Virus record (IMG/VR): IMGVR_UViG_3300042261_000615
Strand: one strand, 5' to 3'
Source of the DNA: an uncultured virus (IMG/VR IMGVR_UViG_3300042261_000615)
Lineage: Duplodnaviria > Heunggongvirae > Uroviricota > Caudoviricetes
DNA length: 64,000 bases
Position 1 is the first letter of the stretch. Each line of letters opens with the position of its first letter. The notes under the pieces are model-generated. The model did no database searches and had not been told where the DNA came from. It saw only the letters and a program-made list of their open reading frames with translations. The position numbers and the translations under genes are program-made. Positions 317-23,924 of this stretch are shown here, one piece after another.

Positions 317-1084
317 TTAAAATTGAAAAAATTCGTTTGATTTACTAATGTTATGATTATTTATTCGGTCCACACTTAAATCATAATAATGGGTGTCCAA
401 CTCCATACATATATAGTTTCGGTTTGTATTTATTGCGGCGATTGCAGTTGTACCACTACCAGACGTGTTATCTAATATCGTTTCACCTTCATTACTATAT
501 GTTCGTATCAACCATTCTAAACAATCTATACTTTTTTCTGTCCGATGAAGTGCTACACTTGAATGTGGTTTTTGGAAAGATATTATTGATTTTGGATATT
601 TTTTAGTCGTTTCAGTATCAGTAACCGACGGTTCAAATTTACCATAATTCTTATTATTTACATCTTTTTGTAGAAACTTTTTACCCTGATTATGCGATGG
701 TAATCCATTTGTAAATTGAGGGTTGTATGTTCCCAACTTTTTGTAAAATATAGCAATTTGTTCATGCACTCTCAATGGCATCCGTTTTGCATTTAGAAAC
801 CCACTTGTCAGTTTTTTATCCCAAACTAAATCATACTTAAACATCTTTCTATTCGATTGTACCAAATCTACATAAAATAACCCCTGAGCGAATAAAGCAA
901 TAACACCCGTATCCTTTATTATCCTCTCATAGTGTTGCCATAACGTATCAAATGGTAGGGTTATATCCTTTTTATTAGAAGTAACACCATACGGCAAATC
1001 GCATAAAATCATATCAATACTACCATCGGAAATATCTTTCATCAATTCCAAGCAATCACCGTGATATATTTTGTTTATTTCCAT
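317..1084 (-). CDS. N6-adenine/N4-cytosine DNA methyltransferase (beta class)
   Basis: GDCLELM, motif IV DLPY, HRTEK, motif I DNTSGSGTT, MELD. Confidence 0.9.
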   Translation of the reverse strand: MEINKIYHGDCLELMKDISDGSIDMILCDLPYGVTSNKKDITLPFDTLWQHYERIIKDTGVIALFAQGLFYVDLVQSNRKMFKYDLVWDKKLTSGFLNAKRMPLRVHEQIAIFYKKLGTYNPQFTNGLPSHNQGKKFLQKDVNNKNYGKFEPSVTDTETTKKYPKSIISFQKPHSSVALHRTEKSIDCLEWLIRTYSNEGETILDNTSGSGTTAIAAINTNRNYICMELDTHYYDLSVDRINNHNISKSNEFFQF

Positions 1085-1085
1085 A

Positions 1086-1937
1086 TTAAAATGCGAAAAA
1101 TTTACTAGCCTCTCGTTTTACACTTACAACACTTCCCCAATTTACACAATCGTAGAAATCTTGAAGTTTTTCAGTCAATTCACTATCCAATATTCGGTTA
1201 TGGTCTATATATGTTGTTATAAATTCCATAATCTCAGATGGATCATTATCACCCTTAAATGCCAATGCATCGATACCAAGTGGATTAGATTTCAAATATG
1301 CCCATTTGACCTTATCACCACTCCTAAGAGGTTCATACTTAAACGCACAATTAAAATGCTTCAAACAATCATTATAAAGTATTGCCGCTTTTACATGGGC
1401 AGGAGTACCTTTTTCCAAACTAAACGGTTGTCTTTTTTTGGGCATATATTTTGACATATCCTTTACAGCTGAATTCTTAGATATATCCACTACATTCATA
1501 CTCTTCATATTCGATCTAAAATCAGATATAATGTCTGTAACTTCATCTTCGGTTTTACCTTTCAATATACTAATCAAAACATCAGCCATTACTTTTTGAA
1601 ACGCTTTAGGAAATGAAGATCTCTTTACATCCAACCCCTTAACATCCAATTCATCCTTTGCTATACCATTTTCAGCAATAATCCATTGAGCATATCGTTT
1701 CTTCGATACCCACAAACCGCTACGAGATACAAACTCTTTCTTAATCTGAAAACGGTGGTTCTCTTTTGGTACATTAAATATACGTTCCGATAACAAATCG
1801 TAAAAATTATTAAGAAAATCCTGCGTTTCACCCGCAATACCATCCACTAGTTGTACAATATCCTCAATAGATTTATCTCTCCAATTATCATAACGATGGT
1901 CTAATAACGGAACTGCGCTAAAAAATACGGAATCCAT
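1086..1937 (-). CDS. Family-B DNA polymerase, C-terminal piece (second half of motif C, palm and thumb)
   Basis: Begins MDSVFF; KKRYA, VKGLDVKRSS, TPAHVKAA typical of gp43-like polymerases. Confidence 0.9.
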   Translation of the reverse strand: MDSVFFSAVPLLDHRYDNWRDKSIEDIVQLVDGIAGETQDFLNNFYDLLSERIFNVPKENHRFQIKKEFVSRSGLWVSKKRYAQWIIAENGIAKDELDVKGLDVKRSSFPKAFQKVMADVLISILKGKTEDEVTDIISDFRSNMKSMNVVDISKNSAVKDMSKYMPKKRQPFSLEKGTPAHVKAAILYNDCLKHFNCAFKYEPLRSGDKVKWAYLKSNPLGIDALAFKGDNDPSEIMEFITTYIDHNRILDSELTEKLQDFYDCVNWGSVVSVKREASKFFAF

Positions 1938-2021
1938 CTACGTGTCAATGTAGATGTTGAAGTCTATTCGACCCTCAGCATCTACATTGACAGTACCCTT
2001 TCTTATACTTTTAATTTTCAT
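1938..2021 (-). CDS. 27-aa middle piece of the family-B polymerase, MKIKSIRKGTVNVDAEGRIDFNIYIDT, in frame with the C-terminal piece and separated only by TAG
   Basis: Manual translation ...TAC ATT GAC ACG TAG ATG GAT TCC; YIDT plus DSVF rebuilds motif C; own upstream promoter. Confidence 0.8.
   Translation of the reverse strand: MKIKSIRKGTVNVDAEGRIDFNIYIDT
1943..1992. repeat. 14-bp perfect inverted repeat (extended RNA hairpin) inside the polymerase mini-ORF
   Basis: tgtcaatgtagatg (1943-1956) and catctacattgaca (1979-1992); the inner segment pairs further around a GAAUA loop. Confidence 0.9.
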
Positions 2022-2046
2022 TTATATTATTTTAATTAGTTTACTA

Positions 2047-2078
2047 CAAAGATACGAGAATTATTCCGAATAATCAAA
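2047..2078 (-). promoter_or_regulatory. Bacteroidota-type housekeeping promoter for the downstream polymerase pieces
   Basis: Minus strand TTTG-N20-TATCTTTG. Confidence 0.75.
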
Positions 2079-2918
2079 TATTTTAACATTTAATTTTTCA
2101 TCTATTCTAATAAATTTACATTTTAATTGATTACCGATTTCATTTTGACGAATTAAATCTCTTTCGGGCATGTCACCCCTACTATGATATTTTTCATCAA
2201 ACTCTATAACTACATTATTATCAATATCATAACCATCTACAATATATGTGGTATTTGGGATATGGTACTCACCACCGTTCTCAGCATGTTGGAACTCATA
2301 TCCGTTTTCTTCTGCATATTGTTCTATAATTGGTATTGATTTTTTATTGTAAGCAGTACATGTACCTTGCCTTATAACTCTATTTATAGCAGATTGCTTC
2401 ATTTTTTCTAATTCTTCGGGACGTTTTTTTCGTTTATAATTTCCCGATTTTTCCCCTATACAAATTTTTTTTTGAGTTACAGCATCGTTCATACTATCTG
2501 CTATTTCTTTACCATATAGTGTAACCCATTTTTCATAATAAGATGTACCATACATTGGGTTTTTTTCACCAGAATTACCTCGTTTTTTGTTATATTCAAC
2601 CCATTGTTCATAATCCCAACCGTATCTGTCTCGTTTATACTCAAATGAATTAGAATAAGACTGTTTTTCTTTATATATTTGCCATTTAATTTCACCATCA
2701 ATTTGACCATATTTGGATATCATATTATCCAATGTATTTGATCTACGATTTTGATATTCGGATTTGGCTTTGATTGCATCATCTTTAGATAATCCTTTAT
2801 ACAAATGAAAATACTCAAATGTACCAGGGGTTCTACTCAGCCGCATTTGTTCAGCTTCGGTTTCAGTATACCCGATATCAATCCAATGTTTTAATGTTCG
2901 TGCGCTTCCTTTTCCCAT
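2061..2918 (-). mobile_element. Free-standing homing endonuclease (Vsr/DUF559-like PD-(D/E)XK) between the polymerase pieces
   Basis: C-terminal VDGYD...VIEFDEKYH...RD; KYG-type repeats and NUMOD3-like GEKNPMYG; upstream TATTTATA at 2951-2958. Confidence 0.8.
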
Positions 2919-2974
2919 AATTTATATATAGATATGTTAGTGTATCCATATATAAATATAAGAAATTTAATTAT

Positions 2975-4744
2975 TTAGGCGATAAAATCATCACTTTCTA
3001 ACAAATCTTTTGCTAAAATTTCCTGTAATATACCATCTCGCTTTATAGAAACTTTACTATTTGGGTATTTAGTAATTTCGCTACCATTATCCAATGTAAT
3101 TATAATAGGAGTACCACCAAGTTCCATATTATATTTGGCATTAGCCATAGCTGCAGTAGATTTAATAACCTCCTGCCCCGTAAGTGTTACGGCTTCGGCA
3201 TTTGAAATATTATAGAACCTAAAAGCCGGGAGCCCCATGACGCCATATAAGCTATTGAGCAAAATCTTCTGTACTAACTGACGTTTTTTATAAAAAGTGT
3301 ATTTATCTTTATCACCGGCCAATCCAAATTGTTTTTCCAATTTTCTAAACTCAACACGTTGTTTGAACCAAGTATCCAAAATATCGGGAATACAACCAAC
3401 TTTATCGGTTCTGTACATAACACCATTTGATGCAACCGAATACTTTTCGGTTGTTATCATACGTTTTAGATTTTCAGCCGATATGATATTTTGACCAATA
3501 TGATATTCCGAAACTTTACCATTTATAAAATCGGATGCGTTCCAATTCTCAATCTTACCAATAAGAGTCTCGGGGCTAATATTAATGGTCATAATAATGG
3601 ATGGATACAGCGATGTTAAGTCCAAGTCATAAATCCACTCATACTTACCAGCTATGGGATCCTTAACATACGCTCCGATGAACTTTTCATCACCATTTTC
3701 ACGTAAGGCTTCCATTCGTTCTTGTCTATCAGCAGGTTTATTGGGTGCTACTAAATTCTTTCTTCTCAGATAAGTCAAAATAGCCCCCTCCAAATACTTC
3801 GATGAATATACAAAATCCTCATATGGTACATGACCAACGTGACATATCGCACGTGCCAAATCAATGAATTGTAACTTATTATTGAGTGCCACAACCAAAT
3901 CAACGTCCACTTTGTTGTATTCAATAAACTTTTCAATATCGTCCCTAAACAATTGGTCAAGATTTCCAGTATATTCAACCTTACCACGCTTCAACTCAAT
4001 ATTAGAAATAGTATCCAACCGATAATTCGGTAGTTCGGTGTAGGTATATGTTTTGTACAAATCAATGTAGTCCATATATGATACACCAGCTATAAAATAT
4101 CGTGTACGATACGGACTCCAAAAACACTGACCAATTGGTGATAATCTATTTGCATGTTGTTCACCCAACACATTCTTAATACGATTATACAACATCGGTG
4201 TATCGAACTTGTCTATATTCCACCCCGTTACAATTGTGGGATTGATCATTTCATATAAATCTAAATAACCCAAAAGTAGTTCAGCTTCACTACGATATGG
4301 TATTACTTTAGCACTTGCGGTATCACGTTCGACCATATCACCTTTAGCATCCAAAACCAATACATAATATTGGTCGGTTGCTGAATCGTGTACAGCAATA
4401 GATGTTATTGTATTTTGAGCTTTCTGAACATCTGGCAATCCACTCTCCATCTCAACTTCAATATCATATGTAAGTATGACATGACCATCCGATGAATCAT
4501 CAGAATCGGTGTATAAATCAATTAAAGCCCGTGTTGTTTCAGGAACATCCGATTCAAACAATTCAGGATCATCCTTTTTGAATTTGTAAATTTTATTCAG
4601 TCTATCACCATAAATTGATAGATATTGGCCACCTGCTGATTTTTCATAAGCATACCGTGTATATGGGAAAGAAAAGTACCCCTTCACACTATCCCACACA
4701 TGCATTAAGTTTCGTTCTCGTTGATAATAAATACTGCGATACAT
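2975..4744 (-). CDS. Family-B DNA polymerase, N-terminal piece (3'-5' exonuclease, motifs A and B)
   Basis: YDIEV, TGWNIDKFD, YNKVDV, DLDLTSLYPS, KILLNSLYG; ends before motif C. Confidence 0.95.
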   Translation of the reverse strand: MYRSIYYQRERNLMHVWDSVKGYFSFPYTRYAYEKSAGGQYLSIYGDRLNKIYKFKKDDPELFESDVPETTRALIDLYTDSDDSSDGHVILTYDIEVEMESGLPDVQKAQNTITSIAVHDSATDQYYVLVLDAKGDMVERDTASAKVIPYRSEAELLLGYLDLYEMINPTIVTGWNIDKFDTPMLYNRIKNVLGEQHANRLSPIGQCFWSPYRTRYFIAGVSYMDYIDLYKTYTYTELPNYRLDTISNIELKRGKVEYTGNLDQLFRDDIEKFIEYNKVDVDLVVALNNKLQFIDLARAICHVGHVPYEDFVYSSKYLEGAILTYLRRKNLVAPNKPADRQERMEALRENGDEKFIGAYVKDPIAGKYEWIYDLDLTSLYPSIIMTINISPETLIGKIENWNASDFINGKVSEYHIGQNIISAENLKRMITTEKYSVASNGVMYRTDKVGCIPDILDTWFKQRVEFRKLEKQFGLAGDKDKYTFYKKRQLVQKILLNSLYGVMGLPAFRFYNISNAEAVTLTGQEVIKSTAAMANAKYNMELGGTPIIITLDNGSEITKYPNSKVSIKRDGILQEILAKDLLESDDFIA

Positions 4745-5847
4745 TATTGAATCTCCCTCACATTTTTAATAAAATTATTCTCAATATCCCAACTCTTCAA
4801 TTGGTTTTCCCATAAAAGTGATTGGGCTATTTCTGTTACATTCGGTCGTTCAATTTCACCATCAAATAATTTTACCACTTTTTCTTTGAATTCTTGCTTT
4901 GTTTTATATAGCAATGGGTATTCGTTTCCAACCATTTCTGGATAACACATACCATCTGGTAATAGATATGGTACACCTCTACTTAACCCATCTGTGGTAC
5001 TCATACTCCAAGCTGAATATTTCTGAAAACACCCTACTCCGAAATGGGCTTGTGATAGTTGATTCATATATACATCTCTGTCAGCATGGCCTATATATTT
5101 GGTATATGGTTTACCCATATCCTTCAATGTAGTCCAAACTTGAAAATCCTGACGTTCCTTCCACAATTCATCCATCGTTTCAAAAAACCATTCAGACCCA
5201 GTATACACATTATCTCTATGATTGAACACAACCGTCTTTGGCGTAAACCCATTGGATGGAGTTGCAGTATCACACCCCAAATACCAAGGTTGAATAATCT
5301 TATCCAATTTCTCTATAATATGCGGTTGGAATACTTCGCCGGCGCGTTTCAACACAAGTTGTTTTACCCATTCCGAATTTACACCACACACTTTCATATC
5401 AAGCATACCACGAATGTTTCGCCAAAATGAATTATCATCCCTAGCACCATTATCAGGAATTTCCCACCAATGACAATATCCAATTATTGGTTGGGTTTTA
5501 TTATAAATACGCGTTATCTTAAATTCGTGAGTCCACTCAGGTAGATGCGACCACACCATATTAAAATTACCCTCATCCAATAATTTATCAAAAAACCTAT
5601 GTGGATAATCAACCCGCATCTTAGGCGGAAAGGAATCAACCTTTCCCATCAATCTCAATTTTACGTTTGGATAATCAATCCAATTTATTATGCCGGGCAT
5701 ATTATCGCTCGGGTAAGGCAGAACCCACTCCCAAGTCTTACCAATTTCGGTATTATCTAAAAAAGATTTGAATACCAATAGAAACGAATCTCTATTGATA
5801 TCCTTTGCTCCAAAATTAGTGTAATTAGGTATTACAAGTACTTTCAT
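4744..5847 (-). CDS. GT-B fold glycosyltransferase, probably DNA-modifying
   Basis: VVFNHR, WSMSTTDGLSRGVPYLLP, CYPEMV resemble GT4-type C-terminal motifs; TAATG overlap with the polymerase start. Confidence 0.7.
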   Translation of the reverse strand: MKVLVIPNYTNFGAKDINRDSFLLVFKSFLDNTEIGKTWEWVLPYPSDNMPGIINWIDYPNVKLRLMGKVDSFPPKMRVDYPHRFFDKLLDEGNFNMVWSHLPEWTHEFKITRIYNKTQPIIGYCHWWEIPDNGARDDNSFWRNIRGMLDMKVCGVNSEWVKQLVLKRAGEVFQPHIIEKLDKIIQPWYLGCDTATPSNGFTPKTVVFNHRDNVYTGSEWFFETMDELWKERQDFQVWTTLKDMGKPYTKYIGHADRDVYMNQLSQAHFGVGCFQKYSAWSMSTTDGLSRGVPYLLPDGMCYPEMVGNEYPLLYKTKQEFKEKVVKLFDGEIERPNVTEIAQSLLWENQLKSWDIENNFIKNVREIQ

Positions 5848-7713: not shown

Positions 7714-8517
7714 TCACCAAAACGATACTGAAAGGCTATCTTCGGGTGGAAATGTTTCGTGATATGTGATATTAGCATCATATACCGCATTATCTTTTGG
7801 GTATGGTTTCAAAGCATGCTTGATGTTCTTCATCAGTTCCTTCTTCTCACGCTTATCACCAACTATAATCTGAACATACCGATGTTTTGGTGGTTCTAAT
7901 CGTCTCCAGAACCCAGCATACCCCTCTTTACCAATCTCTCTTTTTAAATGGTCTAAGTTATTACTACCCCACAATGAATAAACAGTTCTGCTGTGAATCC
8001 ATTTGTAAGGATTTTCTTGCACAGATATCCCGTAATTCGGCATTAACGCGATTTCATCGCTCGTACCCGTATATTGCCAATTGGTAGCCTGATAAATCTT
8101 ACCTAAATGCTCTTGCCCAACATCAGCGTATGATATCAATGCTTTAATATTTTTGTCATTTTCTCTCAACCATTTGAAAGTTTGCCCAATTGCATATGAT
8201 TCAATATTAGAACCATATCCATCATCAATATATAATCGTGTAAGTTCCAATACATTATCTTTTGTCAGACCATCACTAATAGATGTGGGGGCTTTTGCAC
8301 CAACTGGGAATCCGTAGATAGCACACCCAATTAACTTATCCGTATCGCCTAATATATTAACCTCATCGGTTTTATAGAACACCCCTATGGCGTAACGGCA
8401 CGCGGACCATGCGTGGGTATAGTGTTTTTCTACAATAATTTTTTTAGCAGTATCTTTGGATATGGGTGCAACATAAACTCTGCTCACATCGCAATACTCT
8501 TTTCCTTCTTCACGCAT
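7714..8517 (-). CDS. Mom-like GNAT-fold DNA base-modification protein, paralog 1
   Basis: IVEKHYTH, VLELTRLY, ALISYAD, HLGKIYQATNWQYTG. Confidence 0.8.
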   Translation of the reverse strand: MREEGKEYCDVSRVYVAPISKDTAKKIIVEKHYTHAWSACRYAIGVFYKTDEVNILGDTDKLIGCAIYGFPVGAKAPTSISDGLTKDNVLELTRLYIDDGYGSNIESYAIGQTFKWLRENDKNIKALISYADVGQEHLGKIYQATNWQYTGTSDEIALMPNYGISVQENPYKWIHSRTVYSLWGSNNLDHLKREIGKEGYAGFWRRLEPPKHRYVQIIVGDKREKKELMKNIKHALKPYPKDNAVYDANITYHETFPPEDSLSVSFW

Positions 8518-8532
8518 TACAATTTATTTTTA

Positions 8533-8563
8533 CAAATATACTATTTTTTTTTCAGATTGCAAA
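8533..8563 (-). promoter_or_regulatory. Bacteroidota-type promoter
   Basis: TTTG-N19-TATATTTG. Confidence 0.65.
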
Positions 8564-9316
8564 ATTTATTGGGTCTAATTTATAAATCTCGTCAGTATGT
8601 GTATCATTTAATTTTGGATATGGCTTTAATTCATGCTTCAAACTTTTTATTATACGTTTCCGACCACTGCCATTCGTTAAAATATATATATACCTATGCT
8701 TTCTGGGTTCTTTTTTTATCCAAAATGGTTTGTTTACCAAAGTTTGTATTATTTTGGGGTCATTAGTCCCATAGTACGGAAAAATTGTTCTACTATGTTG
8801 CCATTCACCATTTTCATCAAATCTAAATACCCACCCATCATTGAATCGTAACTTATTACCCTGATACATCCAATTCGTTGCCTGATACACTATACCCGTA
8901 TGACCAGCTTTTGGGTCTGAGTATGATATTAATGCCTTTATATGTGGTGCATGTTGTCGTAACCATTTGAAAGTCTGTCCAACGAACCAACTCTCAACAT
9001 TACTGCCATATCCATCAAATACAAATAAACGGGTCAGTTCTAATACAGATGTACGGTCCAATAGTGGTGAAATAGATTGTCCTGCGCTTCTACCAACCGG
9101 ATCCCCATAACAAGCAACCCCTATCAACTTTTCGTTTACGTTATCAAAGAATGGGTGATATTCATTATTCTCAATAAATAACCCAATTGCATAACTAACT
9201 TTAGTCCATAAGTGTGAATAATGGTTTGAAACTATAATTTGTCTAGCAGTACCTTTTGGTATCGCCCGTATGGATAATTTGGATGTATCGCAATACTGCT
9301 TTCCTTCTATTTTCAT
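8552..9316 (-). CDS. Mom-like GNAT-fold DNA base-modification protein, paralog 2
   Basis: IVSNHYSH, VLELTRLF, ALISYSD, HTGIVYQATNWMYQG. Confidence 0.8.
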   Translation of the reverse strand: MKIEGKQYCDTSKLSIRAIPKGTARQIIVSNHYSHLWTKVSYAIGLFIENNEYHPFFDNVNEKLIGVACYGDPVGRSAGQSISPLLDRTSVLELTRLFVFDGYGSNVESWFVGQTFKWLRQHAPHIKALISYSDPKAGHTGIVYQATNWMYQGNKLRFNDGWVFRFDENGEWQHSRTIFPYYGTNDPKIIQTLVNKPFWIKKEPRKHRYIYILTNGSGRKRIIKSLKHELKPYPKLNDTHTDEIYKLDPINFAI

Positions 9317-9321
9317 ATAAT

Positions 9322-9501
9322 CTATTTAAGATGTTTCCACGTTTTACGTTTCGTTATTTCGCGGATATTCCAAGAACTCACCTTAAAGTTTCTAGCAATA
9401 ACATTATCGGAAAACCCCTTTTCATGTAACTCTCGGATTTTCTTTACTTGTTCATTTGTCAATTTTGCTTTTGGGTGCATTTCCCCCCGCAATCCGCTCA
9501 T
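9322..9501 (-). CDS. Small helix-turn-helix protein resembling the DNA-binding tail of HNH endonucleases
   Basis: GEMHPKAKLTNEQVKKIR...IARNFKVS...KTWKHL; start set at the ATGA overlap. Confidence 0.65.
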   Translation of the reverse strand: MSGLRGEMHPKAKLTNEQVKKIRELHEKGFSDNVIARNFKVSSWNIREITKRKTWKHLK

Positions 9502-10130
9502 ATCGAAAACCATTTATCAGCCCCTTTAATTATAGGGTGATACCACCCCAATATCTTACGCATCTTATTACGTTTCATATGGATTGGATATAACCATATG
9601 TTCTTCGGCAGCCCTTCACATATTACAGCCTTACCCGTTTTAACATCTTCCCTCATTCGATATGAATAATCCCTATCTATAGATAATGAGCGTGGGTGAT
9701 ATATTTTACCTTCCCATTCCACCCACTTTGTAGCCGATGTCTGCCCTATATGTCTAAAGTTAGCAGCTTTGTATATAGTACCCATATGTCCTACAGAGGT
9801 ATCGCTGTATGACAATACATTTTCATATTCAGTATTTGTAGATATCCATTGGATAATTTGTCCCAAAAACCAGCTCTCACTATTTTTTGGAGCAGCATCA
9901 ACACACGCCATTCTACGAATATCTATACAATTTTTATAACGATTTTCATGTCTCGGTTTACCCAATACAGCACCCCCAACCAAATCATTATCTATTGTCA
10001 TAGCGAAACAATTACTTATACCGCCACCCATATGACCACGCTTATAGTGAAACTCTTCAAATATATGTCGAATATCACTAAAATCACACAGATATATTTT
10101 GCAACGCGTTTTATCTAAAACTTCATCCAT
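9498..10130 (-). CDS. Mom-like GNAT-fold DNA base-modification protein, paralog 3
   Basis: FEEFHYK, IDIRRMAC, PKNSESWF, VLSYSD, HMGTIYKAANF; start set at the TAATG overlap. Confidence 0.75.
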   Translation of the reverse strand: MDEVLDKTRCKIYLCDFSDIRHIFEEFHYKRGHMGGGISNCFAMTIDNDLVGGAVLGKPRHENRYKNCIDIRRMACVDAAPKNSESWFLGQIIQWISTNTEYENVLSYSDTSVGHMGTIYKAANFRHIGQTSATKWVEWEGKIYHPRSLSIDRDYSYRMREDVKTGKAVICEGLPKNIWLYPIHMKRNKMRKILGWYHPIIKGADKWFSI

Positions 10131-10495
10131 TATTCCCAAAAACAATGATTTGTTGGTTTAATATCACCCACCTTCTTTTTCTTATCAGTATACTCAATTT
10201 TATCCGAATTATGTAGTTCCCAATCGATACGGGCCTCTGCAATTTCGAAATAATCCGGTTCACGCTCAATACCTATAAAGCTCACACCTTCACGTATTGC
10301 AGCTTTTCCGGTACTACCACTACCCATAAAAGGGTCTAACGTAACACCACCCTTTGGAGTAACCAATCGTATAAGATATGACATTAGGTCTACTGGCTTG
10401 AGCGTCGGGTGCGTATTCGATTTACCAGTATGCAGCGTAAAATGTATTTTTAGTTCGTCTGGTAATTTATCGTATTGCTGCTTTGATAGTTTCAT
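10130..10495 (-). CDS. Split DNA methyltransferase, C-terminal SAM-binding piece
   Basis: NTHPTLKP, LDPFMGSGSTG, FIGIERE; complements the ORF at 11275-12924. Confidence 0.85.
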   Translation of the reverse strand: MKLSKQQYDKLPDELKIHFTLHTGKSNTHPTLKPVDLMSYLIRLVTPKGGVTLDPFMGSGSTGKAAIREGVSFIGIEREPDYFEIAEARIDWELHNSDKIEYTDKKKKVGDIKPTNHCFWE

Positions 10496-11216
10496 ATATA
10501 TAATCTTTATTTAATTTAATATCGCTTTCCCAAAATCTTAATACAGTATAACCAGCTTTACGCATATATGCATCTTGACTTTTATCCAGATTCATTCTTT
10601 TTAATTGTCTATGGTCAGGAATGCCCCCTTTTAATTTGGTGGGGTGACCGTGCCAATAATCACCATCCCATTGTATTACTATTTTTTTATCAACTAATAC
10701 AACATCAACTAAAAATTTATCAAATAGTAATTGCTGACATTCATATTCAACCCCTATATCGTTTAATATAAAATTACCAGCAATTTCTAATCCATTCAAC
10801 CCCTTCCTATTTTGTTGTGACTGGTTTGCTTTTATATTGGATTGTCGCCATTCATCATCACTATTTCGACATACGATAGAACAAAATTTAGTTTCATATT
10901 TTCTGCCATCGGCAAGACTTTTACTTATAGCAAATTCAGTGCCGCATGTTTTACATATAAAACGTGATTTATTTCTAGATTGCCAAATAATCTGACACGT
11001 ATTTCCACAAAATCGTTTAGATTGGGTTTTTGTAGTAAAATGGTTACTACATATTTCACATTGCTTTTCTATAATATATCTAAAAGTTCTAGTAGGTCTG
11101 TAAGTATCATAACATTTGCGAGAGCAGTATTTTTGGTTTTTATTAAAATGACCACCAACAGTCTTACCGCATGACACGCACAAAATTTCTCTATATTTAT
11201 ATTCACACTTACCCAT
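10467..11216 (-). mobile_element. Free-standing homing endonuclease (zinc-ribbon repeats plus DUF559/Vsr-like domain) splitting the methyltransferase
   Basis: CxxC...YCSxxC repeats; VDVVL...IQWDGDYWH...D...GYTVLRFWE; TATTTATA at 11249-11256. Confidence 0.85.
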
Positions 11217-11274: not shown

Positions 11275-12924
11275 TCATAAATATTTTTTAATTTTTTCTA
11301 ATATTTCTAATGCAACACCATCGTTTAATATATAAAAATCATCACCCAACCCTTCATTGCGTTCCGATTTGGATACTTTTGGACAATAAAAGAATCGAGA
11401 AGCACCACCCATATCATCATATTCGCAATTAACTTGAACTTCGGTACTATTGTTTAATTTTATCGGGTTACTTATATCAGCCGTTCTTTTATTTCCTTTT
11501 ATAGATTTACTCACACCACTTTGTTCATCCAACAGTTCCCCCGCTTCTTCATCCAAAATTATATTAGCAGGCCATCTACCCAAAGTTTGACCATTAGTTT
11601 GGTGTGTTTCTTGAGCTTTACTATAACCATAAATACCTTTGCTTACGGCACTATCACTACCCCGACTATGGTTCGTTATAGTTTCATCTGTAGCTATTCT
11701 ACACCCGTCTATGTTAATCCCACCAGTACCCCATTTCAGTACGTTGTCTGCAACAGTAGGTTCGGATAGTGGTTTTCTACAAAGTGTCCACAATTCCATA
11801 GCAGGTTTAAGAGCTGTGCCTCGGCCGTCAAATTCTGCTACATGGTTTTTTAGAATATCTACCATGCTTGAAATTAGGAGCTCCATTGTGGATACCGTAA
11901 TAATGACATTGATGACAGTAGGTAATTCCGTTTGAGATAACATGCCGCAACTCGGGGTATTCTGAACATAATTTAATATGATGGGCTTCAAGTTTTTTAT
12001 TATCTCCGCATATTGTACATTTATATCCATCTCGTTCAAGTACCGAACGTTTCCATTGTAAATCTTCTGGACTACGTCTACCTTGAGACTGTCCATTATT
12101 TTTTCTTCTAAAAGAGGATGAGCATTTATGGGAACAGAAATTATGTTCGGAGTGGATGATGTTAGTATTTGGTTTTCGTACTTCAAGTCCACAGTATTCG
12201 CATTTAATAACATTTGAGTTTGCAAGAGATCTGCAGGATTTACTACAATAGTTGTGTGCCCCTCTAGTGTGTGACAAGTTTCTATCAAATTCACTTCCGC
12301 AATTATCGCATTTGACTCTAATTTTAGTTGTGTGTCCGATACCGGAGCACTTTTTACTACAGTATTTTTTTTCGTTATATGATTTCCAGCATCTATCTGT
12401 TGTTTTGGGGATAACTGTTCCGCATGTTTCACAATATCTAAGTTCACGTTTTTCCATAATTCATATATATCTTTACTATAAGTATCAAATTTTTTAAAAT
12501 TGTCAATTGATTTATAGATATTTTTTGATATATTCATACTTTTCGGGAATCCGCTTCCATATACCCAGGCAACAATATCCCTGATTTCAAACCCAGCAAA
12601 TCGCAGACTAGATGCCATCCAATCCTGCGTTCTAGTACCACATGCGACCAGCATATACCCCCCCGGTTTCAATACTCGATATACCTCCTTCCATAATATA
12701 GGTTGGGGTACGAACGAATCCCATTCCTTTCCCATAAAACCACCACCCTTTACTTCATGGTATCCGCACTTTACCCATGATGTCATCACGTCTACAATGT
12801 CGGGTTCTTTTCCAAGTCCGTATGGAGGGTCTGTAACAATACTATCAACCGAATTGTCATCCAATTCTTTTAGCCTATCTAAGCAATCTCCTAATAATAA
12901 TTTAATGTTTCCGTTATAACTCAT
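11275..12924 (-). CDS. Split DNA methyltransferase, N-terminal catalytic piece, with a ~225-aa in-frame insertion
   Basis: GDCLDRL, TDPPYGL, WVYGSGFPKS, GTALKPA, GRWPANII, ASRFFYCPK; no FxGxG motif. Confidence 0.85.
   Translation of the reverse strand: MSYNGNIKLLLGDCLDRLKELDDNSVDSIVTDPPYGLGKEPDIVDVMTSWVKCGYHEVKGGGFMGKEWDSFVPQPILWKEVYRVLKPGGYMLVACGTRTQDWMASSLRFAGFEIRDIVAWVYGSGFPKSMNISKNIYKSIDNFKKFDTYSKDIYELWKNVNLDIVKHAEQLSPKQQIDAGNHITKKNTVVKSAPVSDTQLKLESNAIIAEVNLIETCHTLEGHTTIVVNPADLLQTQMLLNANTVDLKYENQILTSSTPNIISVPINAHPLLEEKIMDSLKVDVVQKIYNGNVRYLNEMDINVQYAEIIKNLKPIILNYVQNTPSCGMLSQTELPTVINVIITVSTMELLISSMVDILKNHVAEFDGRGTALKPAMELWTLCRKPLSEPTVADNVLKWGTGGINIDGCRIATDETITNHSRGSDSAVSKGIYGYSKAQETHQTNGQTLGRWPANIILDEEAGELLDEQSGVSKSIKGNKRTADISNPIKLNNSTEVQVNCEYDDMGGASRFFYCPKVSKSERNEGLGDDFYILNDGVALEILEKIKKYL
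11828..12457 (-). mobile_element. HNH homing endonuclease nested in the methyltransferase gene in a different frame
   Basis: Zinc-ribbon repeats, then VLERDGYKCTICG...LEAHHIK...NGITYCHQCH; promoter variant TACTTATA at 12477-12484. Confidence 0.85.
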
Positions 12925-13664
12925 TCCCAAAAATTATTTGAATTTTTATTTAATCTTTTATTTATAATTTCAATATACTCTATATTATTTTCAATTAAAA
13001 TACAATTTCGATTATTGTTTATACACACATCACCCAAAGTGCCACTACCAGCAAAATTATCCAATATAATATCACCCTCATTTGTAAATAACTTAACCAA
13101 TCGTTCAATAAGTTGATATGGTTTTTGAGTCGGATGCTTTAATTTTTCCCTACTATTATGCGGTAATGCCGGAATATCACTCCAAACGTCACTCATAGTT
13201 ATACCATCTTTTAGAATGCCTGTATAATATTCTTTTCTGTCGGTTTTTGGTTTGATTTTAATATTATTAAATGTACCCCCACTCCCATTAGTATAGTAAC
13301 AAATCGGTTCATATCCACTAGCTAAAGCCGTACCACGGGTATTATTAAATGCGCGTTTTCTAGCCCAAATTATTATTCGTTTTTCATTAAAAAATTCATC
13401 TAATATGGTTGATATTTTGCGATTATATTGACGGCCTGTAAAGATAATTATATTACCCCCATCTTTAATAATTCGTTTATATTCCACTATAATACGTCGG
13501 CACCAATCCAAATACTCAACTTCAGTACTCCATTGATTATCCCAATCTTCTTTAACTACTTTATAAAATGGCCAATCTGAAATTATATGATCTATACTAT
13601 TGGTATCGATATTCCCAAGTTCCTCTATACAATCCCCATAAATAATATTTGCGTTTACACTCAT
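12921..13664 (-). CDS. N6/N4 DNA methyltransferase (beta class) with atypical motif IV DWPF
   Basis: GDCIEEL, SDWPFY, HPTQKP, DNFAGSGT. Confidence 0.85.
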   Translation of the reverse strand: MSVNANIIYGDCIEELGNIDTNSIDHIISDWPFYKVVKEDWDNQWSTEVEYLDWCRRIIVEYKRIIKDGGNIIIFTGRQYNRKISTILDEFFNEKRIIIWARKRAFNNTRGTALASGYEPICYYTNGSGGTFNNIKIKPKTDRKEYYTGILKDGITMSDVWSDIPALPHNSREKLKHPTQKPYQLIERLVKLFTNEGDIILDNFAGSGTLGDVCINNNRNCILIENNIEYIEIINKRLNKNSNNFWE

Positions 13665-16497: not shown

Positions 16498-16992
16498 TTA
16501 TCCCAATCCTGAAACTTGTGGAGGTTTACCCCCAATCGGCATTGTTTCCATATATTTTTTATGAAGTAATTGTCTATCTTCTTCAGCACCACTCCTACTT
16601 GCTTTTTGCGAAATAATACCATCGGTTGATGTAGGATTATACACTTCAATAATTCCATGATTCGTGTCCATTTTTGTGGGAAACGTCAATCCATCCGGAC
16701 CGAATCTGTTTTTCATAATATGAATACGAGCAGTATTATTCAATTTATCTTTCGATTTTCTACTTAAACTTATAATGAAGTCTGCGTTCATAACCTTTGC
16801 ATATGAATCCGCAACTTTGTCAGCTTCAATTACCTCACTATCTACAGATGAATTATGGGTATATATATCATTGGCGTAGAACATATGCGTATCCGCCACT
16901 GTTATATCAATCGTTTCCAACTCACCAATCATTTCTATTGAAACGATTTCATCCAAATCAAAATCATTAATATCTAAAGTATGTTTATTCAT
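16498..16992 (-). CDS. Replicative helicase piece 3: 47-aa IntC (16852-16992) plus C-extein
   Basis: TIDITVADTHMFYANDIYTHN|SSVD; ADSYAKVMNAD, MKNRFG. Confidence 0.9.
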   Translation of the reverse strand: MNKHTLDINDFDLDEIVSIEMIGELETIDITVADTHMFYANDIYTHNSSVDSEVIEADKVADSYAKVMNADFIISLSRKSKDKLNNTARIHIMKNRFGPDGLTFPTKMDTNHGIIEVYNPTSTDGIISQKASRSGAEEDRQLLHKKYMETMPIGGKPPQVSGLG

Positions 16993-17956
16993 ATAAAAAT
17001 TTAATACATTGCCCAATAACAACACTTTTATTCTTCATATAATTCTCATATTTTACACGAAGAACATCATAGTTATGCGATTTCAAAAACAAATCACGTT
17101 TCATATCACGATATGTATCATGCCAATACTCACAGTCAAATTCAATAATTTTATGCTTAAACTTAAAATCAACTCTGTGTAATTTTATCAAATTATCAGT
17201 ATGTTCATAAAACTTATACTCTTCATTTAATTCATAAAAATATACGTCAGATTTCATATTATCAGGCAAATGGTTATATATTTGCCAAAATAACGTTTGT
17301 GATGATTTGGATACTCCATTAAATTCCAATGGTTTGGTAATTGCTGATAACCACTCAGTATATTTCACAGTTCCATCAATTTCACCATATTTGGATACCA
17401 TACGGTCTAATGTAATTGCATATTTTTTGCAATTCTCTTCGTATTTAATCCTACCAGCATCTGCCCCATATCTATTTACAAATGATTCAAGTGATATGTT
17501 ATCTTTAATTTTAGCACATATTTCACGACCATAGATTTCACCATATTCGTCTATATATCGTTGCCGAGATACTTTATATGATTGAATTCTATTTCGTTCA
17601 CTCCATTTAGTATAACCAACATCAACACCATGTCGTTCCTGATATTCTTCTAATGTTCTTCCGTTTTTCCACTTTTTATCTCTAAAATTATCTTTTTGAG
17701 TTTTTAGTTTTTTAGAAACAACAGCATCCCATCGTAATTTTCCATCAATATCACCATATTTATCAATATAATATTGTAAATTAAAAGTAGATTTCTTTTT
17801 AGATAAATTTTTAACATAATCATCACCATATTTAATACGTAATTCGTCCTTCGTCTTACCAAATTTTGATTTGTGGTCATTCCACATTCGAAGTCCTTCA
17901 CGCTCTCCGTATTTATTTATCCACGCTTGTTTTACAGATGCCATAATTTTTAACAT
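16985..17956 (-). mobile_element. Free-standing homing endonuclease (DUF559/Vsr-like) between helicase pieces 2 and 3
   Basis: KYG...G...W repeats; VDFK...IIEFDCEYWH...RD...YDVLRV; TATTTATA at 17969-17976. Confidence 0.8.
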
Positions 17957-17993
17957 ATTTAGTGTATATATAAATATAACAACATCACAAAAA

Positions 17994-19121
17994 TTACGTG
18001 TTTTTTTCACTTTTTTTTGTAAAAAGTTTATCACCTACCTTCAATCCCATTTCTATTGATTTCAAATTACCATATTTTGTCGGAAATTGGTGCTTAGCTG
18101 ATACATCTATGGTTTTTCCACTTTTTAATGTTATACGATATACTGCTTGAGTTCCAATTGGAAATACATTAGTAACTGGTTTATATCCATCCGATGTCAA
18201 AACCACATCCCCCTCTTTAATTTTTCCAATTTGTATTTTACCAGATGGGGTATCTACAACACTATCCAGTGCGAGGCATCTATTTGCCTGGCTTGCGGTC
18301 CATATTGGTATACCAAGTTCGCCACCCATACCCCGTAGTTCAATATAAATACCACCCTGTTCACCATAGGTACTATCGGATTTGTTTGTATGCGATAACA
18401 ATAAATCAGCGTAATCAACTATTATCAAATCAGGTTTATTGCCCAATGCAATCATCTTTTCAATATGGGCTTCCAGTTTTTTGGAGGTTATGCCTTTAGG
18501 TGGAAAATATTTAATTAATAGTTTACCTTTCAACTTTTTTATCTTCTCATATACTACATCCGATTTTTCCTTCAAATCAGATGAGGGTATTCCTGTAAAT
18601 ATCGTATCATACCGAGCCCCTACATATTTTTCCGATAATTCAAGTGTATAATGTACAACAGTCTTTCCAGCCTTAACTGCTTGAGCGCCTATGGCATTTA
18701 ACACCCATGTATTATGGGATAGTATCCCATTCGAATAAAAGCAATGTACTTTATCAACAGATAAGTCATATAATATCTTATCAGTTTTCTCTTTTATTTC
18801 TTTAATTTTAGTCACACCAGTTTCAGTCTCTATTATATCGCATGTAATATCAATATCTTTAACAGATTTCCACTCACCGTTTGCCTTCAATTTATGATCC
18901 CAACCACACTCAAGAGTCTTATTATTATTAAAATACAAACGTATTGATTTCTGTTTTACAGTTCTACATACTTGAGGTACTGTATGATACCCGTATGGTG
19001 TGTTTACCTTCAATTCATACGGAATATCAACAAAATAATCTTCAATTTCAGGAATATCATTTTTATTAAAAAAATCGTCAACCCTAATACTTTCCCGTTT
19101 CGTTTTAGTGTGAATTACCAT
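17994..19121 (-). CDS. Replicative helicase piece 2: 137-aa IntC (18711-19121), middle extein, 94-aa IntN (17997-18278)
   Basis: YDLSV...FYSNGILSHN|TWVL; YTLELSE, IIVDYADLL, WTASQANR|CLALDSVV...SAKHQF. Confidence 0.92.
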   Translation of the reverse strand: MVIHTKTKRESIRVDDFFNKNDIPEIEDYFVDIPYELKVNTPYGYHTVPQVCRTVKQKSIRLYFNNNKTLECGWDHKLKANGEWKSVKDIDITCDIIETETGVTKIKEIKEKTDKILYDLSVDKVHCFYSNGILSHNTWVLNAIGAQAVKAGKTVVHYTLELSEKYVGARYDTIFTGIPSSDLKEKSDVVYEKIKKLKGKLLIKYFPPKGITSKKLEAHIEKMIALGNKPDLIIVDYADLLLSHTNKSDSTYGEQGGIYIELRGMGGELGIPIWTASQANRCLALDSVVDTPSGKIQIGKIKEGDVVLTSDGYKPVTNVFPIGTQAVYRITLKSGKTIDVSAKHQFPTKYGNLKSIEMGLKVGDKLFTKKSEKNT

Positions 19122-20013
19122 CTACAATATTTTTTATTTTTTTCAAAATCTCATTTTTGTCATCGTTGTATTCGTTCTCCCATACAACAATAACGGTATA
19201 ACCAAGTCCTTCCAAATATTTTATTTTAGTGTAATCATATTCCCAGATTTCCTTAGCCGTTTTACGTATATGCGGATGTATATCCAACTCATTAAATATA
19301 TTTGGATGACAATGCCAATATATTCCAAAGTATTCAATCACTATATTATCAATGAGAATATCCACATTATAGTGTCCGATAAACGTATTAGCAATTGCAC
19401 TATCGGTTATACTACTAATAATGTTATTATATAATTCAATCTCACCATTGCTACGATATATACTATCAGCTGAATCCCCGAAATGAGATATCCACACATC
19501 GTTACCTACATTATCGATATGCCGGCGAAGTCCTTCAGATATACGATGCTTAGATTCGGTCGAATGGTGTCTCCCACTGAATTTAGGTGAACGACTTGAT
19601 AATTTACGTTGAATTTGCCCAACCATATCTCTAGCTAAACTGTCGTCAAGCCCTCTCCGTTTCCAGAATTCCACACTAAATGATGTTGGTGAAATATCGT
19701 AGTTACGTTTCTTAGAGTTACTACTTTGTATAGTTCGTACACGTTCTTTAGCAGAAATTTCATCCATACCACACCCCATCCAATATTTATAATCGAAAAT
19801 TGATTTACGATTTTCATTCATTTTGGATATCCAATATGGATCTTTCATACGATCTGCCCACAATTTAGATAATTTTTCTTTTTGAGTACCACTCATACTA
19901 TGTACCGATTGTACATTGTATTTTGATTTATAATCAGCAATACTCATATTATGTTTTCGAGTTATATGCGTAATCAAACTGAGCCCTTCAAATCCACAAA
20001 TTTCACATCTCAT
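19105..20013 (-). mobile_element. Free-standing homing endonuclease (zinc finger plus DUF559/Vsr-like) between helicase pieces 1 and 2
   Basis: CEICG...H...H; VDIL...IEYFGIYWH...D...GYTVIVVWE; TATTTATA at 20030-20037. Confidence 0.8.
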
Positions 20014-20052
20014 AATAAATTACCTTTTATATAAATATAAAAAAATATTTTT

Positions 20053-20844
20053 TTATGCGGTCTTACCAACGCCTAATGATAATAATTTTTGAACTTGATA
20101 TGCATACATAAATTCTGAATCACTAATATATATTTTATCCCAAGGTTTGAACCACGCTATAAGTTTATCCGTTAGTTCAAACCCAATTTCGTCATATTCA
20201 ATATCAATAATTGTATCACCACCAACGCATTTCCCAACACCTGACGGAGCGACTACAACTGCCAACTCACCCGGACCTAACCCCCCTTGCATCAATTCAT
20301 CAATTACATCAAACCCAGTTGGTACAGTATCACGGTTTTCATCAGTTACACGATCTGTGTAATCCAACAAATAATCATGACCCAACTCACTATCGACTCC
20401 AATCTTCATAGCGGAATCAACCAATTCTTTAATTCTGTCGTAATTTCCCGATTTAAGCAAATCCACAGATTGAATAATTGCGTTTTTAAGATTTTGATTT
20501 ATACAAAATGCCGAAAACTCATTTTTTATATAATCAGCATCGGTTGCATCTATATTATCATAGATTATTTTAAGTTGTTCCACAATGGACTTCATCAACG
20601 ATTTGTTGTCCATTTTGGAAAGTTCAACCTTAAACACTTCAATTGTCGGAATTCGTCTATAATTTTTGTAATAATTTAATATCTCTTCAACTATCCATTT
20701 ATTCGATTCCGATTCAAAAAACTTTTTATGGATTAATTCACTCAATGAATCCAATAGTTTAATATCTGATAATAACGCTGATATGGTTTTTTGTTGAAAA
20801 GAGTGGCCGTATTTTTCCAGCGTATCTGTATTATTTGTACTCAT
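20053..20844 (-). CDS. Replicative DnaB/gp41-like helicase piece 1: N-extein plus short IntN (20056-20229)
   Basis: VPTGFDVID..MQGGLGPGEL, Walker A APSGVGK|CVGGDTIIDI. Confidence 0.92.
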   Translation of the reverse strand: MSTNNTDTLEKYGHSFQQKTISALLSDIKLLDSLSELIHKKFFESESNKWIVEEILNYYKNYRRIPTIEVFKVELSKMDNKSLMKSIVEQLKIIYDNIDATDADYIKNEFSAFCINQNLKNAIIQSVDLLKSGNYDRIKELVDSAMKIGVDSELGHDYLLDYTDRVTDENRDTVPTGFDVIDELMQGGLGPGELAVVVAPSGVGKCVGGDTIIDIEYDEIGFELTDKLIAWFKPWDKIYISDSEFMYAYQVQKLLSLGVGKTA

Positions 20845-21953: not shown

Positions 21954-22391
21954 TTACTCATCCAACAAAGTACCAACCGATAACTCGTCTTCTGCTATCT
22001 GATTGCTCTTATATTGTGATATTGTTGCATCGCATATCTTGCTATACACATCATCTCTCATATCGGGGTGTGATGTCAATATATCTTCAAAATCTTTTGA
22101 TTGAAATTTTATCTCCTCACCTGTAGTTTCATTCACATACGTATACCACGCACCACCCTGCTTTATGATACCATAATCTTTCATAGCACTTATCCAAGCG
22201 CCATAGTTATCGATACCACGGTCAAAGAATATATCGAAATCAGCGGATCTCAATGGTGGGCCCATTCGATTCTTTATAACCTGCGCCCGTACTTTAATAC
22301 CAACAACTTGTTCTTGACCTTTAACTTTTGCTTTGATAGTTCCCATATTTTTCAACCTAAGCCTAACTGATGCGTGAAAAGCCAATGCTTT
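21954..22391 (-). CDS. recA: RecA/UvsX 3' exon
   Basis: KALAFHASVRL, VIKNRMGPP, GAWY; follows the intron terminal G. Confidence 0.9.
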   Translation of the reverse strand, partial: KALAFHASVRLRLKNMGTIKAKVKGQEQVVGIKVRAQVIKNRMGPPLRSADFDIFFDRGIDNYGAWISAMKDYGIIKQGGAWYTYVNETTGEEIKFQSKDFEDILTSHPDMRDDVYSKICDATISQYKSNQIAEDELSVGTLLDE

Positions 22392-23558: not shown

Positions 23559-23924
23559 ACCACCACTTGTTGTATTATGGTTCAACTGACCATTTGCCCA
23601 ATAGCATTCAGTATCATCTACTGAAATGTCTACTACATTCATTTCACCTTTTACTAAAACCGCATCCGGATGATCTTTTAGATGAATGAACGAACCATTG
23701 TAATCAACTCTATGATTACCAGTTCCGGTTAATCCACCTAATTGATAAAACTCGGTTACTTTCGGTTTCACTAAAAAATTAGTAATTTCTTTATAAACCT
23801 CGCCAACATCCGATTCGGATTGTACATGCAACCCCATCCCCTCAATATCAAAGGTTTCGGGATTACTATAATCCATTTCAAATAATCTAGCAAGTTGATC
23901 TAATGTTACTTCATTTTTTATCAT
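23559..23924 (-). CDS. recA: RecA/UvsX piece 2, 5' exon: 117-aa IntC plus five extein residues TTSGG
   Basis: GTGNH (block B), VVDISVDD..CYWANGQLNHN|TTSGG. Confidence 0.88.

Follow-up and report, generated by a model that had tools for sequence, protein, structure and literature searches.

A candidate micro coding gap, preceded by a conserved RNA hairpin, within the catalytic motif of a split family B DNA polymerase gene of an uncultured caudovirus

The gene for the family B DNA polymerase (PolB) of the uncultured virus IMGVR_UViG_3300042261_000615 (Caudoviricetes), contained in a stretch of 64,000 nucleotides (nt) that is called the window below, is broken twice: by a large insert after ...ELGG, and by the 6 nt UAG-AUG between the T and the D of the catalytic YIDTD. 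The second break is preceded by a strong RNA hairpin that is retained, along with a gap of 5 or 6 nt, in 10 other lineages. We propose that the hairpin is the 5' stem-loop of a micro coding gap cassette borne by a homing endonuclease and that ribosomes in the window cross the gap mainly by restarting on the AUG, a reading for which, judging from the sequences, we see about even chances. Ribosome crossing of such gaps would be a rare way to read a gene.

Results and discussion

A polymerase gene interrupted in its catalytic motif

All genes of the PolB locus are encoded on the minus strand, and the coordinates of the hairpin and the gap refer to the minus-strand mRNA (Table 1). The similarity of fragment A (Pfam DNA_pol_B, 9.6e-30; DNA_pol_B_exo1, 6e-20; phrog_262, 1.3e-127, profile positions 91-587 of 856) to intact relatives stops at ...KYNMELGG, and fragment B (DNA_pol_B, 1.5e-07; phrog_262, 3.3e-49, profile positions 580-840 of 856) covers the rest of the enzyme. 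The UAG-AUG splits PolB motif C (YIDT/DSVFF): the short leader open reading frame (ORF) that precedes fragment B ends with ...NIYIDT and a stop, and the next ORF begins M-DSVFF. The mRNA reads UGUCAAUGUAGAUG (1992-1979), 22 nt, CAUCUACAUUGACA (1956-1943), CG, UAG (1940-1938), AUG (1937-1935) and GAU, with the in-frame AUG that opens the 283-aa ORF directly abutting the leader stop. By inspection, no Shine-Dalgarno-like purine run is present within 15 nt upstream of this AUG. Adjacent or overlapping neighbours account for 17 of the 58 ORF pairs of the window, a stop followed by C occurs at just 5 of its 59 ordinary ORF ends, and the window contains no tRNA gene.

In 79 of the 80 IMG/VR relatives of fragment B (57-64% identity), the motif is unbroken (...KYNKELGTxGxD[YF]NIYIDTDS[VI]FF), and the intact relatives carry the uninterrupted site ATCTACATYGACACNGAYTC; Microcystis phage Mel-JY01, the closest relative in culture, has a single annotated PolB coding sequence. 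The Thr codon at this site is ACG in 29, ACT in 21 and ACC in 3 of the intact relatives, such that the codon preceding the stop in the window shows no special choice. Only L003 departs from this pattern among the 80 relatives: it contains a homologue of the nuclease gene, its leader comprises 28 codons, and its junction reads ACG-UAACC-GAU, with a 5-nt gap that changes the frame. The junction of the window is unchanged in contigs of two runs (X1, X2) from one sample, and a run from a second study (X3) leaves positions 1930-2076 uncovered. That the design recurs on 15 additional contigs, and is present in both X1 and X2, rules out an assembly error.

Table 1. Features of the split PolB locus in the window
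Feature	Coordinates	Strand	Remarks
PolB fragment A	2975..4744	-	589 aa + stop; exonuclease domain, motif A, fingers, motif B
C-terminal extension (CTE) of fragment A	2978..3112	-	45 aa, TPIIITLDNG...DDFIA; missing from intact PolBs
AU-rich hairpin enclosing nuclease start codon	2911..2965	-	fold of 2905-2990: -19.7 kcal/mol, z -4.75, 0 of 200 shuffles as good
Free-standing homing-endonuclease-like gene	2061..2918	-	285 aa; putative C-terminal Vsr/PD-(D/E)XK-like nuclease domain
Leader mini-ORF	1938..2021	-	27 codons + UAG; translation MKIKSIRKGTVNVDAEGRIDFNIYIDT, then stop
N-terminal extension (NTE) of leader	1965..2021	-	basic start MKIKSIRK; contains hairpin 5' arm; alignment A4
Hairpin 5' arm	1979..1992	-	UGUCAAUGUAGAUG; codon-by-codon antisense of the I-Y-I-D codons
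Hairpin apical part	1957..1978	-	inner 5-7 pairs and loop
Cassette-borne PolB coding copy D-F-N-I-Y-I-D-T	1941..1964	-	first half of motif C; same as motif of intact relatives
Hairpin 3' arm	1943..1956	-	CAUCUACAUUGACA; last base is first base of Thr codon
Thr codon ACG	1941..1943	-	last sense codon of leader; take-off codon if a hop occurs
6-nt gap UAG-AUG	1935..1940	-	within motif C
PolB fragment B ORF	1086..1937	-	283 aa + stop, M-DSVFFSAVP...; second half of motif C, rest of palm, thumb

The same design recurs in related lineages

Gapped relatives were collected with degenerate patterns that required Y-I-D-T, then T-R-R, then D-S-[VI], and left free the gap length (3-18 nt in the scan of metagenome_contigs) and the bases following the stop. 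Three scans of viral_contigs matched 38, 2 and 8 stretches, of which 3, 2 and 7, respectively, lay in a PolB context; the corresponding numbers were 42 and 8 for metagenome_contigs, and 7 and 0 for genome_contigs. All PolB matches had a gap of 5 or 6 nt. After merging of duplicates, these amount to 15 further contigs that represent 10 other gapped lineages, hence 11 distinct lineages including the window, or about ten if an identity of less than 75% in fragment B is required (Table 2). The identity of fragment B among the lineages is 38-74%, with the exception of L153 and L170 (91%) and of L125 and L126 (80%).

Table 2. Junctions of the gapped lineages (Thr codon/gap) and the interval between fragment A and the leader
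Lineage	Gap (nt)	Junction	Interval
Window	6	ACG/UAGAUG	full nuclease gene
L134 (= L088; L117 identical)	6	ACG/UAAAUG	unrelated small ORFs
L149 (= L003)	5	ACG/UAACC	full nuclease gene
L133	5	ACC/UAACU	unrelated small ORFs
L142	5	ACG/UAACA	
L157	5	ACG/UAACU	61-aa nuclease remnant
L153	5	ACU/UGACU	about 30 nt
L125/L126	5	ACU/UAGCU	full nuclease gene (L125)
L167	5	ACC/UGACA	18 nt
L168/169/173	5	ACU/UAACU	18 nt (L168)
L170/174	5	ACC/UGACU	891 nt (L170)

In 9 of the 11 lineages, the gap is 5 nt long and consists of the stop, C and one further base, with C following the stop in all nine. The last base of the stop and the next two form a second Thr codon (ACN), followed by an Asp codon (GAY), in eight of these nine; in L125/L126, the corresponding triplet is GCU. 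Eight of the nine also lack any ATG, GTG or TTG in the frame of fragment B between the preceding stop and the motif. In the ninth, L153 (4000-4032, plus strand), the junction ACU-UGA-CU contains, in the frame of fragment B, a UUG overlapping with the stop (UUG-ACU-GAU); of the 5-nt forms, only this one could conceivably undergo a restart, which would give M-T-D-S. Fragment B is open over 279-291 aa wherever the contig is long enough (that of L133 is cut by the contig end). The leaders comprise 22-28 codons in all 11 lineages, have a basic, conserved start (M-K/I-I/V-K-x-I) and retain the exact coding of [NI]IYIDT; it follows that any frame change must occur at the Thr-stop position. In the tree of fragment B, the two 6-nt forms, the window and L134, are not sisters. 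Fragment A of L134 (4750-6621, minus strand) has 624 aa, compared with 576-589 aa elsewhere, and by eye the extra tens of residues precede motif A.

A hairpin that accompanies the gap

An earlier note on this DNA described a perfect 14-bp stem that ends 2 nt before the UAG, with further inner pairing, and both the coordinates and the position relative to the stop on the minus-strand mRNA proved accurate: 1943-1956 pairs with 1979-1992, followed by additional inner pairs. The fold of 1920-2030 has a minimum free energy of -32.9 kcal/mol, against a mean of -15.6 for shuffled sequences (z -6.12, 0 of 200 shuffles as good), and the hairpin alone (1941-1994) reaches -27.7 kcal/mol (z -8.11, again 0 of 200).

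A hairpin that pairs the I-Y-I-D codons with a segment of the leader can be formed in all 11 gapped lineages, with energies of -10.6 to -25.7 kcal/mol, the one of the window being the strongest of the set; in every case, the base of the helix lies 2-4 nt upstream of the stop. In alignment A4, 92.8% of 138 cells are paired, a proportion that falls to 11.6-44.2% if the 3' partner is shifted by 1-3 columns. Compensatory changes occur at three pairs (GC:8/AU:3, GC:10/AU:1 and AU:3/GC:2), and none of 500 shuffles matches the covariation score. For example, the 3' arms of L170 and L153 differ by two synonymous changes (UAC to UAU and AUC to AUU), each accompanied by a change of G to A in the 5' arm. 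The leader residues opposite I-Y-I-D vary (VNVD, VDVD, VDVG, VGAG, VSVD, VNMD) while the pairing persists, and the fact that the 5' arm is the antisense of the I-Y-I-D codons explains why these residues resemble V-D-V-D. The 90 nt upstream fold with a mean energy of -22.7 kcal/mol in 8 gapped lineages and of -8.5 kcal/mol in 53 distinct intact relatives (lowest, -13.1), and 7 of the 8 gapped lineages fold lower than all 53. Conservation in all 11 gapped lineages with compensatory changes, together with the absence from the intact relatives, supports the long hairpin as a selected element tied to the stop-start junction. Covariation, which the earlier note had named as a check, is present, and the conclusion of that note that the insert is not a random error holds. 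What it overlooked is the larger homing-endonuclease cassette in which hairpin and gap are contained.

The same note proposed that the long hairpin and a second helix, formed by CAUCUAC (1955-1949) with GUAGAUG (1941-1935) across the inserted UAG-AUG, constitute a conformational switch that gates bypass or re-initiation. The 7-bp helix does exist in the window (-8.8 kcal/mol, z -3.44; -8.5 kcal/mol in the comparison of the 11 lineages), and both helices, which have one arm in common, beat 200 of 200 shuffles. However, none of the other 10 lineages has the 7-bp helix (0 to -1.1 kcal/mol), not even L134, whose gap is likewise 6 nt long. In stability, this helix falls 19 kcal/mol short of the long stem, and, with a ribosome on Thr/UAG, both of its strands would be inside the ribosome. 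Two mutually exclusive hairpins acting as a switch thus find no support, we regard this possibility as very improbable, and the alternative helix seems to be incidental, UAG-AUG repeating by chance the GUAGAUG present in the 5' arm. As for the broader part of the proposal, bypass or re-initiation is the appropriate kind of explanation, given that gaps of 5 nt occur in nine related lineages and that eight of these cannot be decoded via ATG, GTG or TTG.

It is also conceivable that the hairpin has no decoding role, being a feature of mRNA stability or processing or of the cassette at the DNA level, or that the gapped genes are decaying pseudogenes. The presence in the window of a second polymerase-like ORF (phrog_17, see below) would fit such decay. 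The fixed distance of the helix base from the stop in all 11 lineages, the openness of fragment B over 279-291 aa despite an identity of only 38-74%, and the conservation of the NIYIDT-type motif in the leader argue against this explanation, which we consider improbable.

Possible routes across the gap

The cassette splits PolB after ...ELGG, adds the 45-aa tail to fragment A and inserts the Vsr-like nuclease gene, and its 27-codon leader, with which translation would restart, re-supplies D-F-N-I-Y-I-D-T ahead of UAG-AUG. Under the proposed mechanism, the extra bases would break the target site of the nuclease itself and thereby protect it. A ribosome on Thr/UAG would have to have melted the hairpin because the 3' arm consists of the I-Y-I-D codons and ends at the first base of the Thr codon; the 3' arm would then be inside the ribosome and the 5' arm outside. 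The helix could form only as the mRNA exits, and its 14 bp would zip up right behind the ribosome, serving as a backstop or forward driver: backward movement would be blocked, and the same ribosome would resume a few bases downstream. Pairing of the exiting mRNA has been proposed to drive forward movement in gene 60, according to the available text of bioRxiv 10.1101/2024.12.09.627546.

In the 5-nt relatives, the peptidyl-tRNA-Thr would re-pair with the second Thr codon and decoding would resume at GAU, leaving the enzyme intact (a +5 stop-hop). The hop from ACN to ACN is the simplest decoding that restores YIDTDS, considering that a +2 shift would give YIDT-T-DS, and the lack of ATG, GTG and TTG makes restart unavailable in eight of the nine forms. 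On these grounds, a programmed +5 hop in the 5-nt relatives appears probable.

For the window, the most likely event seems to be release at UAG followed by an immediate restart of the same ribosome on the adjacent AUG, which would yield the leader peptide and an M-DSVFF fragment B in a fixed 1:1 coupling; a fraction of the ribosomes may hop instead, and restart and hop may coexist. Restart is favoured by the in-frame AUG that abuts the stop in both 6-nt lineages, by an A instead of a C following the stop, and by the frequency of adjacent or overlapping ORF pairs in the window (17 of 58). We give crossing by termination and restart about an even chance. A second route would be a +6 hop in which the peptidyl-tRNA-Thr leaves ACG with UAG in the A site, re-pairs with AUG (A-U, a U-G wobble and G-C) and resumes at GAU, driven forward by the hairpin. 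The product, NTE-...YIDTDSVFF..., would have an intact motif C and an NTE still attached to fragment B. In favour of such a hop, the window retains all other features of the 5-nt relatives, namely the leader length, a basic N-terminus, a hairpin that is stronger than any other of the set, and a stop that immediately follows Thr. Furthermore, a hop-type mechanism must exist in the family, given the eight 5-nt lineages devoid of start codons, and the other non-Thr landing triplet, the GCU of L125/L126, also retains wobble pairing with the Thr anticodon. P-site re-pairing is described as tolerant of mismatches in the available portions of PMC5009743 and bioRxiv 10.1101/2022.08.31.505936. Conversely, a landing on ACN, as in eight of the nine 5-nt lineages, would be expected for a 6-nt hop as well, whereas both 6-nt lineages have the canonical start AUG, and the base after the stop is A in the window as opposed to C in all nine 5-nt forms. 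A +6 hop in the window seems possible, and we entertain it only tentatively.

Several considerations weigh against our interpretation of hairpin and restart. After a restart, the enzyme would consist of three pieces, with the chain broken and an additional Met introduced between the T and the D, which may harm catalysis, and fragment B would lack the NTE, presumably its means of docking onto the CTE; a chain break in the catalytic motif and a lost NTE argue for a hop in the window too. The position of the stop directly after Thr in the relatives is partly due to ascertainment because the patterns required T-R-R there. The covariation is limited, with 5 of the 14 pairs invariant, since coding fixes the 3' arm, and the hairpin could function in mRNA stability or processing instead. 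Finally, a single origin of the two 6-nt forms is possible in the tree, so that the seemingly repeated appearance of AUG may be one event.

The nuclease gene and the structure of the cassette

The nuclease protein belongs to phrog_22677, and its nuclease domain matches Vsr/I-Bth0305I-like folds; I-Bth0305I is said to be a Vsr-like homing endonuclease (PDB 3r3p). The protein matched no Pfam family, and a sequence search of PDB, with the protein alone and as a profile, yielded chance matches only. Three paralogues from phrog_22677 encoded in the window exceed the cut-off of DUF559 (Vsr-like), and one of five aligned homologues contains NUMOD3. The membership in phrog_22677, the DUF559-passing paralogues, the homologue with NUMOD3 and the location of the start codon within an AU-rich hairpin provide indirect grounds for predicting that the 285-aa gene encodes a homing endonuclease. 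When used as a query against viral_contigs, the nuclease gene retrieved just three weak loci. Directly downstream of fragment B, L003 (1725-2462, plus strand) encodes another nuclease paralogue, which shares the C-terminal domain and contains NUMOD3 repeats (8.6e-18).

About 45 extra residues follow ...ELG of fragment A in all lineages for which upstream sequence is available, and the CTEs of six gapped lineages align with a conserved pattern (alignment A2); the CTE matched no Pfam family. Judging by the intervals between fragment A and the leader (Table 2), the nuclease gene decays stepwise while the split and the gap persist. The element that emerges from these comparisons consists of the CTE, the nuclease gene, the NTE, a copied exon piece and the coding gap, all in a T4-like PolB gene.

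The interruption might instead be removed by a group I intron or an intein, or be bridged by an altered genetic code. This possibility deserves mention given that the helicase gene of the same window is broken by split inteins and Vsr-like nuclease genes (see below) and that the CTE profile weakly matches the block-B region of an intein: in a comparison with PDB, CopZ came first (E 0.0064) and the Pab polC intein second (E 0.19). However, a gap of 5-6 nt is too small for an intron and would remain after splicing, and the CTE is conserved as a protein. A scan of 1000-5000 with Rfam intron models (E up to 1) yielded no intron match, with the proviso that an intron with a large loop ORF could escape detection; the only hit was a chance match on the plus strand (RF01079, E 0.16), and a group I intron appears improbable. 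Among Pfam families, no intein or Hint domain was detected in fragment A, the CTE or the leader, and the junction has no Cys or Ser and no His-Asn, with the tail beginning T-P and the leader ending D-T. An intein origin of the tail and leader was also rejected, the hhalign probability for the CTE and the helicase intein of the window being 0.2%, which leaves the Pab polC match as a weak lead only. An altered genetic code is excluded, considering that the relatives use UAA, UAG and UGA and change frame. Altogether, removal of the interruption is most improbable.

Comparison with known systems

The closest known system is the T4 gene 39/mobA/gene 60 element with its 50-nt bypass (bioRxiv 10.1101/2022.08.31.505936; PMC5009743). 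As far as the available text of these sources goes, the two have in common a homing-endonuclease gene that interrupts the metal-binding motif of an essential replication enzyme, conserved extensions at the C- and N-termini, a cassette-borne copy of the next few codons, a non-coding gap that opens with a stop right after the take-off codon (ACG-UAG in the window), and a stepwise loss of the nuclease gene during which split and gap are kept (the last in bioRxiv 10.1101/2022.08.31.505936). As in gene 60-type bypass, non-coding bases interrupt an ORF whose coding sequence is conserved on either side, both in the window and in 10 other lineages. Unlike in gene 60, however, the target is PolB and not a topoisomerase, the nuclease appears to be Vsr-like and not of the MobA/HNH kind, the gap comprises 5-6 nt versus about 50, and the leader 22-28 codons versus 46; moreover, no conserved A-site take-off stem-loop can form and there is no room for an internal Shine-Dalgarno sequence. 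The 5' stem-loop is the best-conserved RNA element of the PolB cassettes, whereas it is not conserved in the gene 60 family, as far as this is covered in bioRxiv 10.1101/2022.08.31.505936; the accessible part of the same source reports gene 60-type cassettes only in topoisomerase genes. With regard to matched codons, the take-off ACG and the landing AUG of the window pair with only a middle-base wobble, in contrast to the matched ACN...ACN of eight of the nine 5-nt lineages. The window also differs from gene 60 in having an in-frame AUG for an independent start of fragment B.

The 5-nt forms are reminiscent of the synthetic stop-hops of Weiss et al. 1987, +5 and +6 shifts in E. coli as cited in PMC5009743, in which the peptidyl-tRNA detaches from the codon that precedes the stop and pairs again with a matched codon immediately past the stop. 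According to the available text of PMC5009743, no natural in-frame stop-hop is known, and shorter natural counterparts with matched codons have long been expected. The PolB arrangement differs from the synthetic ones in being natural, conserved, located in an essential gene and equipped with a dedicated hairpin. Bypass or a micro-gap in PolB was not found described in the literature searched, a coverage that leaves out supplements and subscription journals.

Petrov, Karam and co-workers reportedly described PolB split as gp43A/gp43B in the Aeromonas phages 44RR and 25, and Pfu polymerase is said to have been split by termination-reinitiation. As in these cases, a family B polymerase could work as separately translated pieces, adjacent stop and start codons would couple translation, and a nuclease gene may sit between the cistrons; the adjacent stop and start with an intact downstream ORF that characterize coupled termination-reinitiation are present in the window. 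Unlike those splits, which lie outside the catalytic triad, the second break discussed here falls between the T and the D of YIDTD, and most of the relatives have no start codon.

The PolB locus further resembles the 'fractured genes' of Dassa et al. 2009, in which split inteins are combined with free-standing Vsr-like nuclease genes and a hairpin occurs upstream of the nuclease genes (PMC2677866, in the portion available). What seems to be the same kind of nuclease gene lies between the halves of a phage replication gene in both, with a hairpin over the nuclease start; in contrast to fractured genes, PolB has no detectable intein motifs, its halves are not ligated by protein splicing, and a micro coding gap is found instead. 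The nrdA gene of phage Aeh1 is split by mobE, with extensions that assemble the enzyme (as summarised in bioRxiv 10.1101/2022.08.31.505936), and shares with PolB the cassette-derived C- and N-terminal tails on the enzyme halves, but it has neither a coding gap nor a hairpin-stop device.

Other features of the window

Several further genes of the window are fragmented or are adjacent to nuclease genes; all those described here are on the minus strand. A DnaB/gp41-like helicase gene (phrog_19) is present in three pieces (20056-20844, 17997-19121 and 16501-17025) that are separated by two Vsr-like nuclease genes (19108-20013 and 16988-18034, both above the DUF559 cut-off). The middle piece contains split-intein halves (Intein_splicing, 2.9e-11, residues 103-137; PT-HINT, 2.2e-07, residues 289-374). 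The phage with the PolB gap thus also has, in this region (16501-20844), a fractured gene sensu Dassa et al. 2009. A RecA/UvsX-like gene (21957-24690) also appears broken. Here, an N-terminal part of RecA (23914-24690; Pfam, 8.1e-38) ends in a short Cys-led tail, and an ORF at 23550-23924 ends with ...NHN-TTSGGITK, by eye the C-part of an intein and a few extein residues; a Vsr-like nuclease gene (22431-23291; DUF559, 2.2e-07) follows, and then an ORF (21957-22394) that starts with MKALAFHASVRL. The intein of this gene may belong to the type whose N-fragment is very short.

Three tandem paralogues of Mom-like DNA-modification proteins (7717-10145; phrog_1384, 4.5e-45, 2.5e-52 and 1.8e-33) are encoded immediately upstream of the PolB region. 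An HNH/homing-endonuclease-like ORF (10470-11216) adjoins two methyltransferase ORFs (11278-12930 and 12924-13664, both phrog_67); the methyltransferase matches of the 551-aa ORF are restricted to its two ends. The second polymerase-like ORF (31199-32482, 428 aa) shows a weak match to another DNA polymerase family (phrog_17, 5.2e-12), and a full GroEL-like chaperonin is encoded at 33270-34883 (phrog_5725, 4.3e-173).

Implications

Efficient programmed bypassing is described for T4 gene 60 and its homologues and for yeast mitochondrial byps, with candidate cases in Streptomyces phages, in the available text of PMC5009743 and bioRxiv 10.1101/2022.08.31.505936. We lean moderately toward viewing the PolB locus as a member of a family of 5-6-nt hops, borne by homing endonucleases and located in the catalytic motif of the polymerase, in which a re-zipping antisense hairpin pushes the ribosome over the stop onto a matching Thr codon, with the UAG-AUG of the window as an evolutionary intermediate that links a gap crossed by hopping to a gene that is genuinely split. 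Such a family would also be a warning for annotation, in that gene callers will label such polymerases as truncated or as pseudogenes. If the proposed reading is correct, a second family of selfish nucleases would have reached the three-part solution of MobA, that is, extensions, a copied exon piece and a coding gap. Natural minimal stop-hops would then provide a much simpler system for the study of codon release and landing, with 5 nt, one hairpin and a leader of 22-28 codons, and natural variants with which mRNA pairing behind the ribosome could be tested as a forward driver. The in-frame AUG variant of the window makes it possible to compare hop and restart on a single scaffold.

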